A DNA stretch of 47,047 bases. Origin: a phage. Both the position numbers and the translations under genes were made by a program. A model generated the notes under the pieces. It saw only the letters and a list, made by a program, of their open reading frames with translations. It was not told the origin of the DNA and did no database searches. The first letter of the stretch is position 1; each line of letters begins with the position of its first letter. The stretch is from sequence record OZ335955.1. One strand, written 5' to 3'. Shown piece by piece: positions 2,830 to 47,045 of this stretch.

Positions 2830-4254
<1,425 letters not shown>

Positions 4255-6831: not shown

Positions 6832-7052
6832 TTTGTTTCTCCATCAAAAAGGATTTCTTTGTATTCATCACTAACTTCATATGCTTTATTTAGTTCAAAT
6901 ACCTCATAGGAGTTTTGACCACCTTCTCGCCATGAGTTTTTGTCATTTAGTTTTGCGGCAACAGCGTCGGCTTCATGCTTGTGTGGATAAATAGCAACGA
7001 CATTTGATGAGACGCCGCATTCGATACAACCAACATTAAATACAAGCCACAT
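6828..7052 (-). CDS. hypothetical protein
   Basis: 74-aa ORF, 4-nt overlap with downstream gene (translational coupling). Confidence 0.45.
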   Translation of the reverse strand: MWLVFNVGCIECGVSSNVVAIYPHKHEADAVAAKLNDKNSWREGGQNSYEVFELNKAYEVSDEYKEILFDGETK

Positions 7053-37613: not shown

Positions 37614-38090
37614 TCAATCCACATCAAAAGGCAAGCCAAAATAGAAAAGTGTGGCTTTTTTTAGTTCATCAAGACCGTAAGCGATGGCTGCATAATGACC
37701 AAGCCTGCACATCTCTGTTAGAACTGCTGATTGATCCTTGCTCACTCTGCTCTTACTTTTGTCACGGCGCTTTGCCTCAATCATTCCGCAGCAGTGGTTC
37801 GCACCCGGAGTCATTATTACGTTATCGCCTATCCCAGCCTTAACACCCATCTTCTGGCGCTTCAGCACAAACTGCACCCTGCTTGATGTGCCAGTTTCGT
37901 TTGGTACATGAAACCACAGAACATCAGGGAAGCGGTGTTGCATCCATGTGCCGTAACCCATCTGGTCAGCCTCCTCTTTCGGGCATTCTCCGCGATAACC
38001 GCCATCAAATACCCATATACCGCTATCAAGCTGCTTCACTCTGTTCTCCTTAAAATTCTTTTCTGTGGATGATATCGCGCCCTTTATCAT
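37614..38090 (-). CDS. VRR-NUC domain nuclease
   Basis: MIEAKRRDKSKSRVSKDQSAVLTEMCRLGHYAAIAYG matches the VRR-NUC core. Confidence 0.55.
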   Translation of the reverse strand: MIKGAISSTEKNFKENRVKQLDSGIWVFDGGYRGECPKEEADQMGYGTWMQHRFPDVLWFHVPNETGTSSRVQFVLKRQKMGVKAGIGDNVIMTPGANHCCGMIEAKRRDKSKSRVSKDQSAVLTEMCRLGHYAAIAYGLDELKKATLFYFGLPFDVD

Positions 38091-39966
38091 TAATGCGATG
38101 CGTGATGCGCTTTGGCGCTTTAATCAATCCCGCATACATCATGAACTGCTTGGCGTTCTGACATTTCAGGATTTTCCCGGACATTGACTTATCATCAAGG
38201 TGAGGGAAGATAGCCTTTGCCTTAAACATGTTTTTCATGTGAATTGCGCCACCGTATGGATAGAAAACCTCGTTAGCCCAGCCTTCTTTCCCATCACAAC
38301 GATTAATCCAGTAGCGATACAAAATACCTTCTCCATCCTTCGTTAGCTGAACCTTGAAATCCATAACGTCAGCCCACTCATTATCGGTATACGCGCGCTC
38401 ATTCAATGCAGCGTTAGGGTCGCGCAAAACATGATCGCAATGTCGGCAATAGCGCGCCGTCGGGTCGTTTTTAGTGCCGCATCCATTATCAAAAATCCTG
38501 ATGCCGTGCTTGTCGAAACCGCAACGGATGTAACTGAAAAACTCTTCGCATCGACCATCTGGAGATAGCGCATCTTTGCCAATGCAGCGACGCGCATATG
38601 GGCTGTTCATTGTTCCGCATTTCGGGCACGGAACCTGTTCACCACTGCGTTTTGAACGTTGCGCCTCAGCCTCTTCAAGAATCGGGTCTTCATACAGCTG
38701 ACCAAGCTCAAACATCGTGCCTGAGAAATCAAGAACCAGATGGTCTTCTTTATGATACCCGGCATCAATTTGCTCTTTCTTCAGCAGGCGCATACCTCGA
38801 CCAAGCAACTGAACAAGAAGGGTTAGCGACATTATTTTCCGTAATATTACAGACGTATCCCAAAGCGGGATGTTGACGCCGGTCGTCAAGCAACCAATCT
38901 GGAAGACATATTTAATCTTGCCAGTGTATGCGTCTTTTAATGCCTTGCGTCTGGCTTTCTGCCCCATGTCTTCGGTGACGATCGCATAACTTCCTTCAGG
39001 TAAATATTTTGCCGCCTCCTGACAGTGCTTCTTGCCTGCGCAGGTAATTAACACGCCATTTCTGTTTTTTGTCAGCTCCATAACCTTAAGCATGATTTTC
39101 TGCGTGAGTGTTCCTTGCTCAAGTATTTCTTTCTGCATCTGCTTGAGCTGCTCTGCGGTGAAGTCCTGCGTCCCGTCAACATCTGAACCATGGAAGTTAT
39201 GCAAGTCATATTTCAAATCATCAACATCATGAAGACCAAAGATTGTTGGCACAACAAAACCGCGATCTACCATGTACTTTGTATCAATGTTTATTATTTC
39301 ATTTTTCCAGTACGCACCTTTCATTGATTCAGTACCACGGAATGGGCTACCGGTGAATCCAATTGTTATCATTTCATGCCCATATCTTGCCTTGCAGCGC
39401 CTGTTAAGTTCAGTAAGTATTACGCCATATTGTGTTGTTGGATTATCACTAATAATATCCTGCCATGGAGCTTGGTGGGACTCATCGATCAGGCAAAATC
39501 TTGGGGTAAAATCACTCAATCCACCTTTCTTGACGTCACCATTTGATTCATCTTTTTTATCAAAAAGTGCGTTCGCGATTGATCCTTCAGTACCGCATAT
39601 AATAGGGTATGCTGTACTTTTCCTGCCAAGAGATGCGCTATAAAGAGAGTTTTTTACACCACACTCCCACATCATTTCAGCATTCTGCTCAGCTATCTCG
39701 CCCTGCCTTGAGATTACAAGGCCATCCCACCCCATATCCTGAAATCTACTGCAAAGCATTGAAATCATCACGGTCTTTCCTGATGAAACAGACGCTGTAA
39801 CATAGCTTGGTTCAGGTTTCTTGCCAAAATTACGAATAACCTCAGCGCACTTTGCGTAAACAAGCCATTGGTAATCATACGGCTCTATGGAACCTATTTT
39901 TATTGATTGCTTTAATCTATCTATATCAATCTCTGAAATCATTTTGTCTATTTTATGCATCACCAA
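38050..39966 (-). CDS. SF2 (DExH-type) helicase with C-terminal zinc ribbons
   Basis: Walker A SVSSGKT, motif II LIDESH, helicase C-domain motifs, C-terminal CPKCG / CRHC clusters. Confidence 0.7.
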   Translation of the reverse strand: MVMHKIDKMISEIDIDRLKQSIKIGSIEPYDYQWLVYAKCAEVIRNFGKKPEPSYVTASVSSGKTVMISMLCSRFQDMGWDGLVISRQGEIAEQNAEMMWECGVKNSLYSASLGRKSTAYPIICGTEGSIANALFDKKDESNGDVKKGGLSDFTPRFCLIDESHQAPWQDIISDNPTTQYGVILTELNRRCKARYGHEMITIGFTGSPFRGTESMKGAYWKNEIINIDTKYMVDRGFVVPTIFGLHDVDDLKYDLHNFHGSDVDGTQDFTAEQLKQMQKEILEQGTLTQKIMLKVMELTKNRNGVLITCAGKKHCQEAAKYLPEGSYAIVTEDMGQKARRKALKDAYTGKIKYVFQIGCLTTGVNIPLWDTSVILRKIMSLTLLVQLLGRGMRLLKKEQIDAGYHKEDHLVLDFSGTMFELGQLYEDPILEEAEAQRSKRSGEQVPCPKCGTMNSPYARRCIGKDALSPDGRCEEFFSYIRCGFDKHGIRIFDNGCGTKNDPTARYCRHCDHVLRDPNAALNERAYTDNEWADVMDFKVQLTKDGEGILYRYWINRCDGKEGWANEVFYPYGGAIHMKNMFKAKAIFPHLDDKSMSGKILKCQNAKQFMMYAGLIKAPKRITHRINDKGRDIIHRKEF

Positions 39967-40223
39967 ATCCTCGCGCCAAGTTGTTCAATTGCTTGTTTCT
40001 TTGTTTCATCATCTATTCCGCTATAAAAATACATATAACTAAGATTCCATAGGTAATCTTCTGGCCTTTCATCGGCAAACAAATCATCCCACTCAAAAAT
40101 CCATTCTCCAGTTCTCTGTCTTCTGTATATGGTTAACCATGTGTTGCTTCGCGGTGGGTATCCGAAGGCAACAGGGACTGGCTTTCCATGAAAAATCCTC
40201 TTTAAAATGTTGTCAAGGAACAC
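39960..40223 (-). CDS. hypothetical protein
   Basis: 87-aa ORF. Confidence 0.4.
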   Translation of the reverse strand: MFLDNILKRIFHGKPVPVAFGYPPRSNTWLTIYRRQRTGEWIFEWDDLFADERPEDYLWNLSYMYFYSGIDDETKKQAIEQLGARIW

Positions 40224-40238
40224 TGTTATATCCTTTTG

Positions 40239-40268
40239 TTGATGTTTCTACGTCAGTTAGCTTATACT
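40239..40268 (+). promoter_or_regulatory. sigma70-like promoter TTGATG-N18-TATACT
   Basis: contains tctacgtca element in spacer and caatctacacc just downstream of -10. Confidence 0.5.
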
Positions 40269-40298
40269 CAATCTACACCAACAATCAAGGGTCAATTT

Positions 40299-41252
40299 AT
40301 GAGATACGACTGGAAAGACATTGAGCCAAAGATGCTCGGAAACTGGGAGGCGGCACTACTGTCAATAGTCAACATAGACAGGAAGATTTTTTCTGGAAAA
40401 CATCAGCCATGCCCTCATTGCATGGGGGTTGACCGGTTTCGTTGGGATAATCACTTCGAAATCAAAGGAGACGGCGGCGCAATCTGCAACCAGTGCGGTT
40501 CAGGCAGCGGCATGAACTGGCTAATGAAACTTTCTGGTATGAGCTTTCCCGAAGCACTGGAGGCGCTGGGTGGATTCCTGAATATGAATCCACGCGAAAA
40601 GCTGGATGCAATCAGGAAGGAACTGCCGAAGATAAATCACAATGACGACTTCATCACCGAGCAGGAAGTCGCCGCAATTATGGCTAAAACGACGCGTATC
40701 GCTATGAATGAGTGGACTTTGATAAATGGTATTGGTTGCGACGTTAACGTCGTCAGCGGCAAATCTGGAGAGCTTATTGCGGTTGAGATGGTGCGTGCTG
40801 ACACAATGAAGCCGTGCAACGTCGCATTCATTGGCATGGATGGTGATGCATTCAGAACATTCTACAAAGCAGGATATAACAAAGACTCAGCCATCAACGG
40901 AAAACTCACACGCGGCGCGATAAGCACAATCGGAGAAGATAACGGGAAGTTCATTTACCTGGTATCTGATTATGCCGACGCGTGGAAATGCCATTACTTC
41001 ACTGGCGTGCATGTCTGGTGCTGCTGGTCGCCGGAAAACATGTGGGAAGTGGTGCGCTCTGTTAGCGATGAGATGAAAGCACGGTTACGCTGCATAGTTA
41101 ATTATAAATTTGACGAGCTTTGCGCAGCGGACAACGCAGGACTTCCGGTAATGCTGCCTGATGATGCTGACACTATCAGGATGGCGAAGCGAATCAGGAG
41201 AAAGATTTATGACGCCGGCGAGTTGATAGGTAAAATGTCAGCCAGAAGATAA
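40299..41252 (+). CDS. DNA primase (zinc-ribbon plus Toprim-like)
   Basis: ORF-track 40236..41252 starts at TTG; ATG 40299; CPHCMGVDRFRWDNHF...CNQCGSGSG resembles the P4 alpha-type primase zinc-binding domain. Confidence 0.55.
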   Translation: MRYDWKDIEPKMLGNWEAALLSIVNIDRKIFSGKHQPCPHCMGVDRFRWDNHFEIKGDGGAICNQCGSGSGMNWLMKLSGMSFPEALEALGGFLNMNPREKLDAIRKELPKINHNDDFITEQEVAAIMAKTTRIAMNEWTLINGIGCDVNVVSGKSGELIAVEMVRADTMKPCNVAFIGMDGDAFRTFYKAGYNKDSAINGKLTRGAISTIGEDNGKFIYLVSDYADAWKCHYFTGVHVWCCWSPENMWEVVRSVSDEMKARLRCIVNYKFDELCAADNAGLPVMLPDDADTIRMAKRIRRKIYDAGELIGKMSARR

Positions 41253-42060: not shown

Positions 42061-43541
42061 CCCCTCATTGCAGCCATATTCATGCCAATACCATCAACAA
42101 TTTGCGTGAATTTAACGCTCATTTTCGTACCTTCAAATTTACTTGCGTCGTTAATCCAGTAACCGCAACCTACAGCATCAATTGCACGAGATGCCATGAG
42201 AGATTGTATTACTGGAGTAACAAGAGTTTTTGCCCCATAGGAAAAATCTTCCCCATTAGACCTTGCTATTGCCTCAGCAAGAGCCTTGAGGGATTTTGTT
42301 TTAACAGCCCTCTGAACGAGAATAGACTGAGGCATCCTGTCATCCTTCGTTCTTCCAGAAAGGATATTCTCAATTCTATTTTTAATCTCATTCCATCTGG
42401 CCATTGTTCCGAGTTCTTCCTGGCTTTCGTTCACTTTTAGCATGCTCATGACGTCTGTCAGGCTTTCGCAAACAAAACAGAATGACCACATCAGCATTTC
42501 TTCTGTAATTACACCTTTATTCCCAGCAGAAAGTGCAGTTGCAACTTTTTCAACCTGTTCGAATGAACGGGCAATTACCGCGCCAAGAGAAACATCATTT
42601 ACCAGCTCCTCAAATCTGTCATCAAGTGATTCAGCCAGCGCCTGCACAACATCGTTTTCGTATCTTGCAACCTGTGGTGATGATTTTTCCACTGCCTTCA
42701 TTTTATCTATTAGAGACTGTGGTGTTTTATGGCCATATTTGCGTAATTTCCTCGCGCGACCGTCTTTCCCCTTAATGAAGATTGCTCGACCAATCAAGCC
42801 TGTTCCGATATTTTCTGAACAAATAATGCTGGACAGCTTCTCTGGTGTTGAAAAGCACATCATTGAGAATATCGGGTCTTCGATACCCTGCTGAATTGGC
42901 CACAATATTTCACGCTCAAGCTGCTGCTCGCGTCTGCGGTATTCTGACTCTACAATCCCTTTGTCCTTAACTTCAGCCTTCAGCTTCTTAAGCTCCTTCT
43001 CAAGCTGCTCTTTGGCGTTAACAGCATCAAGGTCGGAAAACTTCTTCAGCCTGTCGGAATAAACAGACAGAATTTCAGAACCAAGTTCAGCCATGTAAGC
43101 CGCGCCATTCTTCTGAGTCATTACACCAAACAATCCATGACATTCATCAATAATAAATGTCGCTACGCCATCATGATTTATCAGTGACCGACCGATATCT
43201 TTTGATGATGCAATGCGACCAAATACATGCATACCCTTTTCGATATCTCTCGCCATGATTTTGAAATGGCTTTGTGACCTATCCTTTCCTCCCGCTGAAT
43301 CTGCGATACAGATAGTAAGAAGATTTCCCTTCATACCGCTTGGTGTTTTAATCTTACCCTTGCTGGCAATAATCAGTTCATGAAGAGCGGCAACAGCCCT
43401 GAGTCTTGGTTGTTCACGAACCTCACCAGCGGCAATGTCATCAGCAATTTCACCGGCAAGACCAGGTGGTTTGGTAATGTCGTACCACTTTTCTTTGTTT
43501 ATGTCTGCCGTCAGGTCATAAATGGTTTTTATCGACATCAT
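42051..43541 (-). CDS. DUF3987-like replication-associated protein (putative helicase/loader)
   Basis: 496 aa; NLLTICIADSAGGKDRS P-loop-like segment and overall pattern resemble primase-associated DUF3987 proteins. Confidence 0.4.
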   Translation of the reverse strand: MMSIKTIYDLTADINKEKWYDITKPPGLAGEIADDIAAGEVREQPRLRAVAALHELIIASKGKIKTPSGMKGNLLTICIADSAGGKDRSQSHFKIMARDIEKGMHVFGRIASSKDIGRSLINHDGVATFIIDECHGLFGVMTQKNGAAYMAELGSEILSVYSDRLKKFSDLDAVNAKEQLEKELKKLKAEVKDKGIVESEYRRREQQLEREILWPIQQGIEDPIFSMMCFSTPEKLSSIICSENIGTGLIGRAIFIKGKDGRARKLRKYGHKTPQSLIDKMKAVEKSSPQVARYENDVVQALAESLDDRFEELVNDVSLGAVIARSFEQVEKVATALSAGNKGVITEEMLMWSFCFVCESLTDVMSMLKVNESQEELGTMARWNEIKNRIENILSGRTKDDRMPQSILVQRAVKTKSLKALAEAIARSNGEDFSYGAKTLVTPVIQSLMASRAIDAVGCGYWINDASKFEGTKMSVKFTQIVDGIGMNMAAMRGWR

Positions 43542-43783
43542 GAGATCCTTTTGATGATTACTTTCCCATCACTTGATTTGCATGTGAATGATTTTCCTGT
43601 TGCGTGCCCATAAGCATGGGCTTTTCTCTGAACCTTTGTATTGCTGTATTCACATTCTGATATACAAACAATGTCTCCTGGTTTCATCCTGCTAAAAGGC
43701 CACTTTGTTCTCTTTCTTGCATTATCCATATCAAATTGAGTTGCCATTGTTACCTTCATTAAAACCTCCTCACGCTTATACAT
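43538..43783 (-). CDS. hypothetical protein
   Basis: 81-aa ORF adjacent to putative origin. Confidence 0.4.
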   Translation of the reverse strand: MYKREEVLMKVTMATQFDMDNARKRTKWPFSRMKPGDIVCISECEYSNTKVQRKAHAYGHATGKSFTCKSSDGKVIIKRIS

Positions 43784-44220
43784 CAGGTATCTTATTCTTA
43801 TCCATTCCCCATGTCAACCAAGCCGCAACATGCGCAAATCACTTATCCGCTAAATGTAATTCGGGATAAAACGGGATAAGAACGGGGAAAGTTTGGGATA
43901 AGTAATTTTAGTACTAAGTATATGTATTTATTACTATTACTATTTATATATACTGCTATTTATCCTATTTATACCATTTTTCTCACCATGTTTTTGTCAC
44001 CAAAAAAATCCATTCCAAAAATTATATTTCTCTCTATTAGATTCGGGATAAGTGTAAATGGGATAAAACGACGCAACATCATGATTTATTACGAGTTTTT
44101 TGGGGTAAATGAAAAAATCAGCGGGATAAAACGGATAAATTCACCTGTTAAAAATCAATTACTTACAAAATTAATAACTGTTGGTGATAACTAACAGTGT
44201 GGTTTGTTTTAGTCATTGTA
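43784..44220. repeat. iteron-rich AT-rich non-coding region (putative replication origin)
   Basis: at least seven copies of GGGATAA(A/G) in both orientations flanking a ~120-bp AT-rich island (43900..44040). Confidence 0.5.
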
Positions 44221-44249
44221 TTGACGTAGAATCACAACTGATGTAGATT
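44221..44249 (+). promoter_or_regulatory. sigma70-like promoter TTGACG-N17-TAGATT (conserved family)
   Basis: TTGACGTAGAATCACAACTGATGTAGATT upstream of 44280 gene. Confidence 0.55.
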
Positions 44250-44279
44250 GAACTCATCGAAACAAGCGAGGGTGAAGAG

Positions 44280-44465
44280 ATGAAAGAAGAAAGCACGTAC
44301 AGCATCGACCAGATGAGGTTATTCAGCGATATATGCATGGCATTGTCGCAGCAGGTTCCAAGCCTTCCTGCTGACATGCGTTCAAATGCAATCATTGATG
44401 CAGCAAACATGATTTGCGAGGCTTATGCGATGAGTGAAGATGAATATAAGGCTTCGAAGAAATGA
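44280..44465 (+). CDS. hypothetical protein
   Basis: 61-aa ORF with GAGGGTGA RBS. Confidence 0.45.
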   Translation: MKEESTYSIDQMRLFSDICMALSQQVPSLPADMRSNAIIDAANMICEAYAMSEDEYKASKK

Positions 44466-44557
44466 CAGGCGCAACACTCGAGCTTATCGCCAGTCTGGTT
44501 ATCATGGCATTCATCATTATCGCAGTGGCAGTTTCTAAATCAGGGTATAAGGAGTAA
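44462..44557 (+). CDS. small membrane protein (31 aa)
   Basis: ATGA overlap with upstream stop; hydrophobic; another 26-codon ORF follows at 44562..44642 with AAGGAG RBS. Confidence 0.3.
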   Translation: MTGATLELIASLVIMAFIIIAVAVSKSGYKE

Positions 44558-45998: not shown

Positions 45999-46442
45999 AT
46001 GGCTAATCCAAACCCTGTCATGAAATTTTCCTCTGAGTACCAGCCTGCCGGCAGAGGATTAAGCTACAGAAACAGGCTTATTGAGGCATTAAAGCGGTGC
46101 GGACTTGGAGAAGAGGAGTTCCTTGACGCATTTATCAGGACTTCAATCAAGATGACTGAGGAAAACCCGACTCAGGGTGTGCAAATGCTGAAGGAAATAT
46201 TCCTGCGTATCAGTCCGGTACAAAAGAGTATGGCTCCTCCGGTTAATTTTAAATACCGCAAAGATGCCACGCCAGTAGAACAGATAGAGGACGTCATTCA
46301 ATCTGTTTCCAGTGGGGAACTTCCAATCGATGTGGCGTCTCAGGTTGTGTCTATGATTAAGGTTGGGCTTGATGTGAAAGAGTTAACCGAACTCGCTGCT
46401 AGACTTGAGCGACTGGAGAAATTGCTGGAACAGCAACAGTAA
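45999..46442 (+). CDS. putative terminase small subunit
   Basis: 147 aa with C-terminal coiled coil; position immediately upstream of terL on a circular map; positional inference. Confidence 0.4.
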   Translation: MANPNPVMKFSSEYQPAGRGLSYRNRLIEALKRCGLGEEEFLDAFIRTSIKMTEENPTQGVQMLKEIFLRISPVQKSMAPPVNFKYRKDATPVEQIEDVIQSVSSGELPIDVASQVVSMIKVGLDVKELTELAARLERLEKLLEQQQ

Positions 46443-46526: not shown

Positions 46527-47045
46527 ATGAGGAATCTATATATGCTTACGCAAGCAGAATTAAAACACATCCTTGATTACAATCCTGACACCGGAATTTT
46601 CACATGGAAAAACCCACACAAGCAGGGAAGGGCTAAACCCGGGAAGCCAGCAGGAACAATAAAATTATGCGGTACCGTTGGTAGCAAACGGCCGTATCAC
46701 TATATTCATTTTGGAAGAAAGTGGTATAGATCGCATAGGCTGGCTTGGCTTTACATGACTGGTAGTTGGCCTGAAAAAGAAATAGACCACATAAACAACA
46801 ATACGCTTGATAATCGTTTCGTTAATCTGCGAGAGGCTGACCATCAACAAAATGGTTACAACAAAAAGCTACAGGCAAACAACACGTCAGGGGTTAAGGG
46901 TGTGTATTGGGATAAATCAAAATGCAAGTGGATGGCAAGATTAAATATAAATGGCAGGATGGTTAATCTTGGCAGGTTCGCCAACATTGAAGATGCAGTC
47001 AAAAAGATAATGGAAGAAAGAGAGAAACATCACGGGGAGTTTTAA
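46527..47045 (+). CDS. HNH homing endonuclease (HNH + AP2-like domain)
   Basis: EIDHINNNTLDNRFVNLREADHQQN motif and GVKGVYWDKSKCKWMARL AP2-like region; between putative terS and terL. Confidence 0.85.
   Translation: MRNLYMLTQAELKHILDYNPDTGIFTWKNPHKQGRAKPGKPAGTIKLCGTVGSKRPYHYIHFGRKWYRSHRLAWLYMTGSWPEKEIDHINNNTLDNRFVNLREADHQQNGYNKKLQANNTSGVKGVYWDKSKCKWMARLNINGRMVNLGRFANIEDAVKKIMEEREKHHGEF

Follow-up and report, generated by a model that had tools for sequence, protein, structure and literature searches.

The 47,047-bp sequence OZ335955.1, referred to here as the window and analyzed at its full length, is the complete genome of a virulent Salmonella siphophage of the Skatevirus-like group. In a 518-bp divergent intergenic region of this genome (43762-44279) sits a cluster of short repeats surrounding an AT-rich core. 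Here, we propose that positions 43840-44140 are a phage replication origin of the type that combines iterons with a DNA-unwinding element, served by a self-loading helicase that doubles as the initiator. Judged from sequence comparisons, we put the probability of this reading at roughly 0.7; it is well supported, but not proven.

An earlier reading of the letters alone (the original prediction) had also placed a putative replication origin here. Support for that proposal comes from the conservation of the repeats and of the AT core, from the core being the least stable duplex in the genome, and from the retention of the region in the records that bear the helicase. The literature searched holds no description of an origin for Skatevirus-like phages, and a search for GGGATAA together with phage origins returned only unrelated primer sequences.

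Repeats around the least stable DNA of the genome

The motif GGGATAA is found 13 times in the 47-kb window, where 3.5 copies would be expected, and none of 100 shuffles reached 13. Six exact copies lie within 43863-44129, all of them on the plus strand. To control for local composition, a first-order Markov model was made from the 518-bp intergenic region. It predicts 0.13 exact copies against the six seen and, allowing one mismatch, 2.1 copies against the 13 seen, with a maximum of 8 in 5000 simulations. The cluster is genuine, and its density far exceeds what chance would give. Forward copies of degenerate sequence occur as GGGGAAA at 43884, GGGGTAA at 44102, and CGGATAA at 44132; reverse copies are TTATCC at 43798, 43843, and 43960, and TTATACC at 43969.

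The original prediction had spoken of at least seven GGGATAA(A/G) or TTATCCC repeats, in both orientations, in a 437-bp non-coding region bounded by the next rightward promoter. The cluster, its reverse copies, the non-coding nature of the DNA, and the bounding promoter-like site all hold up. The details do not: the exact copies number six, TTATCCC has zero occurrences in the candidate origin region (the reverse copies are TTATCC and TTATACC), and the true intergenic region is the longer one given above.

Reading from left to right, the region presents a reverse copy in the spacer of a leftward promoter-like site (P_L), a second reverse copy, the forward iterons R1-R4, the AT core, a pair of reverse copies, a spacer, the forward iterons R5-R9, an IHF-like site, and a rightward promoter-like site (P_R). 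Iterons R1-R4 start at 43863, 43873, 43884, and 43895, and these steps of 10, 11, and 11 bp correspond to one helical turn. The AT core then spans 58 bp between R4 and the reverse pair, whose copies (43960 and 43969) are followed by a spacer made of T and A runs.

Duplex stability was calculated over the whole genome from nearest-neighbor energies, in segments of 40, 80, and 120 bp. At each of these lengths, the least stable duplex of the genome starts within 43898-43919. For 40 bp, the minimum is -0.92 kcal per step and the runner-up -1.06, the genome mean being -1.38 (standard deviation 0.10). The GC content is 17% over 43900-43979 and 25-28% up to approximately 44040, which agrees with the "AT-rich island" of the original prediction.

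This core also appears to be constrained. The segment 43905-43985, which covers the AT core and the reverse pair, is 76% identical to its counterpart in Klebsiella phages, while the third-codon positions of the adjacent helicase gene are only ~45% identical. Because of this difference, the comparison indicates that the core is under purifying selection as DNA.

Within the core, directly after the last forward repeat, stands a motif TAAGTATATG(T/A), whose copy in the window, at 43915-43925, reads TAAGTATATGT. It is kept in almost every lineage regardless of the type of iteron (L001, L003, L007, L032, L037, L038, L042, and L043 among the related sequences), and AT-richness alone does not explain its conservation. 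It may be a start for melting or priming, or a site for a second protein.

A constant architecture with a changing repeat

The region was aligned from 11 phages of Salmonella, Citrobacter, and Klebsiella and a bat-faeces metagenome, and further relatives were reached through helicase homologues that are 67-80% identical. A 1-kb query (43500-44500) is 97% identical to vB_StyS_KFSST1 (below, KFSST1) and KFS-SE2, and 91% identical to Skate and Seszw. The candidate origin region alone matches 106 phage records, 105 of them from Salmonella phages.

All of the relatives compared show ~500 bp of intergenic DNA at the corresponding position. The order of elements within it is the same in 11 of the 12 regions displayed: a reverse copy, three to four phased forward copies, an AT core of 55-65 bp, and two reverse copies. 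The reverse pair is likewise present in 11 of these 12 regions, always in the iteron sequence of its own lineage. Approximately 15 lineages in all share the layout. R4, as GGATAAG, is unchanged across 11 relatives in the alignment, and the Citrobacter phage K1M lacks exactly one 11-bp unit of the left array. Thus, the possibility raised with the original prediction, that the repeats might be absent from related phages having conserved flanking genes, is answered: all such relatives keep both the repeats and the AT core.

What changes is the repeat itself. The iteron is GGGATAA in the window, KFSST1, and Skate; GGATAA together with GTATAAA in NX263, LPST10, and BS5; GGATAAG in L038 and L032; GG(G/T)ACAA in L039 and L041; GGGTAAG in L037 and L042; GGGGAAG in L040; AGGGAAG in L043; and GG(A/T)T(A/G)A (GGWTRA) in the Klebsiella phages. 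The copies change in concert, so that the forward array, the reverse pair, and the outlying reverse copy all bear the sequence of their own lineage. The last of these keeps its position while its sequence follows the iteron type of the lineage (CTTATCC, CTTACCCC, CTTCCCCC). The lineage motifs are 7- to 72-fold enriched over the flanks, although the motifs were picked after inspection, so the P values are optimistic.

Two more distant phages of Serratia extend the pattern. Phage ZDD2, whose helicase is 33% identical, has repeats of GGGATAT/GGATATCC around an (AT)n core, with 16 copies of GGATAT/ATATCC (L006 1209-1732). Phage Eta, with a fused primase-helicase that is 29.5% identical, has 13 copies of GGATAA/TTATCC and an AT- and A-rich center (L019 4443-5044), and its repeat region lies just downstream of the primase-helicase gene. 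Both regions adjoin genes for DUF3987-type helicases, and both look, from their sequences, origin-like. The GenBank record of Eta annotates there only a putative IHF site and repeats.

The iteron has been rewritten several times, over 6-7 bp, to give GGATAA, GGACAA, GGTAAG, GGGGAA, and GGATAT. A constant architecture with a changing repeat is the pattern that would be expected of iterons read by a protein that the element itself encodes. It points to a phage-encoded reader, and not to DnaA.

Retention in genome-reduced mutants

The records named "seszw" come from genome-reduced mutants obtained in a CRISPR-based reduction study (CiPGr; PMC9825161). Viable mutants of 37 kb have lost genes 47, 48, 50, and 53-59, where gene 50 is the small 73-aa open reading frame (ORF) next to the intergenic region; it is precisely deleted in the viable mutants seszw_280L and seszw_300S. 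Still present in these mutants are both helicases (SF2 and MCM-like), the primase, and all of the intergenic DNA. In all five of the late seszw mutants aligned, the region is intact, having only point changes and 1-nt indels, and these indels shift the frame of the annotated "gene 51" in viable phages. As the internal ORF is frameshifted and the 73-aa ORF deleted in viable mutants, both are dispensable, while the DNA is kept. Among Salmonella phage records, 105 have the helicase and 105 the region; every record with the helicase also has the region, the seszw mutants included.

The late mutants (L012 and L014-L017) show two different T-to-C changes in the reverse TTATCC of the P_L spacer (window 43798-43803) and an A-to-G change in R4 (window 43895-43901) that converts GGGATAAG to GGGGTAAG. 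These mutations could represent escape from Cas9, or adaptation of initiator binding or of autoregulation.

The helicase and the candidate reader of the repeats

The gene that follows the 73-aa ORF in the leftward operon encodes a protein of 496 aa; the original prediction had referred to a phage DUF3987 protein. The protein itself has no Pfam match at E <= 1, PF13148 (DUF3987) included. PF13148 is, however, matched by six of 20 aligned family members (best E 2.6e-08) and by homologues that are 26-29% identical. The match is thus confined to more distant homologues; by its predicted fold, the protein is MCM-like. An AlphaFold2 model built on an alignment of 20 sequences has a mean predicted local distance difference test (pLDDT) score of 81, and the residues of Walker A (G85, K86) and Walker B (D132, E133) are invariant. 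As modeled, the protein has an AAA+ core, an MCM-like fold, and, at its C terminus, a winged helix-turn-helix, the features of the SF6 MCM-like phage helicases. DUF3987 proteins have been described as replicative helicases of this kind in phages, with a winged helix-turn-helix at the C terminus, and as often paired with a primase (Kazlauskas et al., PMC4889955). A PriCT-DUF3987 protein has been demonstrated to be a helicase (PMC11724360).

Elimination and analogy both point to the winged helix of this helicase as the best candidate for the reader of the iterons. The 73-aa ORF was considered for the same role and rejected: it comes in two subtypes that are unrelated to the iteron type, and, as already noted, viable mutants do without it.

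If the winged helix reads the repeats, some of its residues might be expected to vary with them. Differences between the window and Klebsiella helicases are scattered from one end of the protein to the other, with no concentration in the winged helix. Three of the 496 positions have a residue common to three phages of the GGATAA type and differ in three other types, and two of these three (T442 and I445) lie in the winged-helix helix 433-450 (Fisher p = 0.054). T442 is replaced by D in both GGACAA phages (L039 and L041), which are no closer to each other than either is to the window. This covariation is only suggestive.

The candidate origins that accompany helicases 67-88% identical share an identical architecture. 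It is conceivable, at slightly less than even odds, that they form a natural series of mutually orthogonal origin-initiator pairs.

A proposed mechanism

Beyond origin activity and the identity of the reader, we infer that the helicase is loaded in two orientations and that it regulates its own synthesis. Host RNA polymerase would transcribe leftward from P_L, leading to the 496-aa MCM-like helicase. Its C-terminal winged helix would bind repeats having the GGATAA core: the four phased forward copies to the left of the AT core, the two reverse copies to the right, and the further forward copies beyond. Helicase rings would then assemble on both sides, in opposite orientation, and open the 58-bp AT core; bending by IHF at 44153 and divergent transcription might assist. 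The Zn-ribbon primase would prime the strands, and host DNA polymerase III would extend them. The reverse repeat in the P_L spacer is a possible autoregulatory site, which may allow the same protein to limit its own synthesis.

Points that weigh against an origin

Several observations count against this interpretation, or against parts of it. T442, the residue that covaries best with the repeat, is retained in L042 and L043 despite their other iterons, and the pattern fails there. The helicase is ~99% identical in NX263, LPST10, and BS5, yet R2 and R3 are GTATAAA in these phages, as compared with GGGATAA and GGGGAAA in the window; recognition would therefore have to tolerate variation outside a G-ATAA core. 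In the SaPI satellites (Staphylococcus aureus pathogenicity islands), which offer the closest precedent, the origin lies downstream of rep, while here it would be upstream of the helicase. The phage encodes functions for recombination (in Skate, exonuclease VIII, an AAA protein, and SSB), so part of its replication may be independent of an origin. That the CiPGr mutants retain the region could mean that both promoters are required, or that usable cassettes were lacking. Last, the cumulative GC-skew (G-C), a check proposed with the original prediction, does have its minimum inside the region, at 44034. This deserves little weight and is not independent evidence, because gene orientation and transcription switch at the same place.

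Alternative roles for the region

Of the other explanations, the one that survives best, while still unlikely, is that the repeats are operator or activator sites for a regulator of two divergent early promoters. The AT-rich DNA would then be promoter-upstream or curved DNA, and the role of the region would be regulatory only. The region does lie between two promoter-like sites, one reverse copy falls within the P_L spacer, and the IHF-like site is conserved; a need for promoters would also account for retention in reduced genomes. Most of the copies, however, are 45-200 bp from either -35 element and overlap no promoter. The most constrained part is the AT core, which is separated from P_L by more than 85 bp and from P_R by more than 230 bp, and the only small protein encoded nearby is dispensable and does not track the repeat type. 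Opposed repeats that bracket the least stable DNA of the genome are, in contrast, an origin design. A purely transcriptional role leaves without explanation a constrained, least stable core placed between opposed repeats far from both promoters. The two roles are, of course, compatible and not exclusive.

A second alternative makes the region a DnaA-dependent origin, in which the repeats are low-affinity DnaA boxes (TTATCC half sites) filled cooperatively by host DnaA-ATP, as in oriC arrays. The DnaA box opens with the six bases TTATCC, the array is phased at 10-11 bp, and in some relatives R4 is TTATCCAAA, which matches in eight of nine positions. The original prediction, too, had called the complement DnaA-box-like. 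The likeness stops at the TTATCC half. Box positions 7-9 are not conserved in any lineage, and 43784-44220 contains no 9-mer within one mismatch of TTATCCACA; nor does this interval contain the cluster of TTATNCACA 9-mers, including a high-affinity box, by which a DnaA origin would be recognized. Relatives of the same architecture use GGGACAA, GGGGAAG, GGGTAAG, and GGGTTGA, which are not DnaA boxes, even though the DNA-binding domain of DnaA is nearly identical across enterobacterial hosts. These facts contradict a DnaA-dependent origin, which we consider very improbable.

Over the whole window, 9-mers within one mismatch of TTATCCACA number 24, as compared with 11.8 in shuffles (none of 100 shuffles reached 24). 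The minus strand carries 17 of them and the candidate origin none; perfect TTATCCACA copies stand at 3996-4004 and 6982-6990, on the minus strand.

The repeats might, third, be a pac site recognized by the small terminase subunit. Small terminase subunits do bind short repeats arranged in arrays, all viable mutants would likewise retain a pac site that acts in cis, and the packaging mechanism of seszw is stated to be unknown; the papers on KFSST1 and vB_CECAV_048 contain no statements on packaging. The distance is considerable, though: ~1.8 kb to the gene in the terS position and 2.8 kb to terL, with about ten small genes between. Pac sites of the P22 type lie inside the terS gene, and the terS-position gene of the relative L037 matches terS of the P22 gp3 type (PF16677); the corresponding ORF of the window (45999-46442) has no Pfam match. 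The matching region, whether of repeats or AT-rich, adjoins the primase-helicase gene and not the terminase in both Serratia phage Eta and Vibrio phage 1.100.O. Further, pac recognition has no use for a core that melts easily and is flanked by opposed repeats. A pac site is, by this evidence, highly unlikely.

The least credible alternative, that the ORF at 43922-44194 is a real gene for a small membrane protein and the repeats are incidental, has in its favor the annotation "putative membrane protein" in some GenBank records, but is contradicted by a frame that breaks off at codon 38 in KFSST1 (97% identical) and at differing points in every more distant relative, by an open stretch that ranges from 40 to 90 codons among relatives, by the 1-nt indels that viable seszw mutants tolerate, and by a conservation that covers the first part (the DNA of the AT core) and stops where the frames diverge, so that the original prediction was justified in rejecting it.

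Features and gene neighborhood

The features of the candidate origin and of the genes nearby are collected in Table 1.

Table 1. Elements of the candidate origin and neighboring genes in OZ335955.1.
Feature	Position	Strand	Remarks
P_L, leftward early promoter-like site	43789..43817	-	TTGACA-17-TAAGAT, 10/12 match; ahead of the operon of the small ORF and helicase
Reverse iteron copy TTATCC	43798..43803	-	in the 17-nt P_L spacer
Outlying reverse iteron copy	43843..43848	-	~15 bp left of the forward array
Left iteron array R1-R4	43862..43903	+	CGGGATAAAA, CGGGATAAGAA, CGGGGAAAGTT, TGGGATAAGTA
AT-rich core, presumed DNA-unwinding element	43904..43956		contains the TAAGTATATG motif at 43915-43925
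Reverse iteron pair	43957..43975	-	TATTTATCC, TATTTATACC; closes the AT core, opposite orientation to R1-R4
Right iterons R5, R6	44044..44070	+	CGGGATAAGTG, TGGGATAAAACG; copies at 44045, 44060
Right iterons R7, R8, R9	44102..44138	+	GGGGTAA, GGGATAA, CGGATAA; copies at 44102, 44123, 44132
IHF-core-like site (predicted)	44153..44165	+	AATCAATTACTTA; sole exact WATCAANNNNTTR match in the window
P_R, rightward early promoter-like site	44221..44249	+	TTGACG-17-TAGATT
Spurious ORF, 90 aa	43922..44194	+	"putative membrane protein" in some records
Small leftward ORF, 73 aa	43538..43759	-	phrog_28399; first gene of the leftward operon
MCM-like (SF6, DUF3987-type) helicase, 496 aa	42051..43541	-	phrog_33132 ("DNA primase"); C-terminal winged helix predicted
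Zn-ribbon (DnaG/T7-type) primase	40236..41252	+	PF08273, phrog_510; presumed helicase partner
SF2 helicase	38050-39966		replication arm

The left bound of the intergenic region is set by the ATG at 43759 that starts the small leftward ORF and is supported by a ribosome-binding site. Both promoter-like sites resemble sigma-70 promoters. The -35 element of P_L is conserved in Salmonella and Citrobacter relatives. In P_R, TATTGACGTAGA (the -35 region) is invariant in 11 of 11 aligned relatives, and the core bases of the IHF-core-like site are unchanged across the alignment. A terminator-like hairpin at 44177-44198, with a 9-bp stem and a T-rich tail just upstream of the P_R -35 element, was dropped as a feature; its stem is not conserved in relatives. 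An Rfam search of 43500-44500 (E <= 1) gave only chance snoRNA matches far below threshold.

The interval 43762-43858 contains a mosaic breakpoint. Here, BS5 and Segz_1 (L009 and L011) show only 14-35% identity over P_L with the 5' untranslated region and over the left spacer, while the helicase protein is 99% identical. The small upstream ORF of BS5 is annotated at 88 aa, as compared with 73 aa in the window, and its sequence differs as well.

Two small ORFs are also found in the replication arm, between the 496-aa helicase and the Zn-ribbon primase. In Skate, which is co-linear with the window, the exonuclease VIII, AAA protein, and SSB already mentioned come next in this arm, and no DNA polymerase is annotated there. 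The gap between the SF2 helicase and the primase (39966-40236) is 270 bp in the window; an HNH homing endonuclease gene fills it in Skate (1005 bp) and in KFSST1 (648 bp), the coordinates compared being L001 1652-2656 and L002 2080-2727. This gap also contains, at 39894 and 40021, two of the genome's six least stable 40-bp segments.

The intergenic region is followed on its right by small early genes; beyond these lie the terS-position gene, a gene for an HNH endonuclease, and terL. The endonuclease gene (46527-47045) encodes HNH_3 and AP2 domains and occupies the same position in KFSST1. The seszw genome differs from both in that its terS-position gene abuts terL directly.

Why an origin here would matter

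Skatevirus-like phages are under development for Salmonella biocontrol and serve as a chassis for genome minimization. Those who engineer such genomes would learn, from a known cis-acting origin, which non-coding DNA must stay. The origin reading also corrects the recurring mis-annotation of a "putative membrane protein."

More generally, the phage family would offer a compact bacterial system in which to study how an MCM-like helicase recognizes and opens an origin, with natural iteron variants that suit specificity swaps. If the winged helix reads the iterons, a few residues would set the specificity of the origin in a self-loading MCM-like helicase. If it does not, another reader would have to be among the few genes kept in the 37-kb minimal genome.

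Comparison with known systems

The origin of phage lambda is a natural point of comparison. It has four inverted-repeat iterons of ~19 bp inside the O gene, with AT-rich DNA to one side, and O recruits the host DnaB through P. The region described here resembles it in having iterons beside an AT-rich unwinding segment in an early operon, where activation by nearby transcription is plausible. The resemblance does not make it an origin of the lambda type: the repeats are 6-7 bp, are non-coding, and flank the core on either side, and a helicase is supplied by the phage itself.

The satellite phage P4 is closer in some respects. Its alpha protein is a helicase with a C-terminal winged-helix domain that binds the origin by reading short direct repeats. 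P4 is likewise an enterobacterial element that combines a helicase winged helix with short direct repeats, a likeness of overall design. Alpha is, however, a single fused primase-SF3 helicase, while here the primase and the MCM-like helicase are encoded by separate genes. Further, P4 requires two separate sequences in cis, ori and crr, which carry the octamer TGTTCACC.

Iteron plasmids (pPS10, RK2, F, and R6K) and oriC share with the region phased direct repeats beside an unwinding element and an IHF site, and in these plasmids inverted copies in the initiator promoter provide autoregulation (PMC4980987). Plasmid iterons are 17-22 bp and are read by winged-helix dimers or monomers of Rep that recruit host DnaA and DnaB (PMC4980987). 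Here, the repeats are much shorter, and no DnaA boxes were found.

Of the documented precedents, the closest is the ori of the SaPIs, served by Rep. The Reps of these islands load themselves as helicases and have a winged helix that reads iterons of 5-6 bp on both sides of an AT-rich center, in opposed orientations (PMC9371898). Three features of this type are found here: a cluster of short repeats far above chance (518 bp with six exact copies and 13 that differ at most once), an AT-rich segment near the middle, flanked on either side by two or more iterons that point in opposed directions, and an adjacent gene for an AAA+ helicase with a predicted C-terminal winged helix. In both systems short (5-7 bp) iterons flank the AT-rich segment, and the origin or candidate origin lies beside the gene of a hexameric AAA+ helicase whose C terminus has, or is predicted to have, a winged helix, some SaPI Reps being themselves SF6/MCM-like. 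In both, iteron sequences differ between related elements. The differences are that a SaPI is a Gram-positive satellite, and not a virulent enterobacterial siphophage; that its ori is immediately downstream of rep, and not upstream of a helicase operon between divergent promoters; and that the phage region has extra forward copies on the right and an IHF-like site, with helicase binding that we infer. The design itself, in which iterons surround an unwinding element beside the gene for an initiator-helicase, is already well known.

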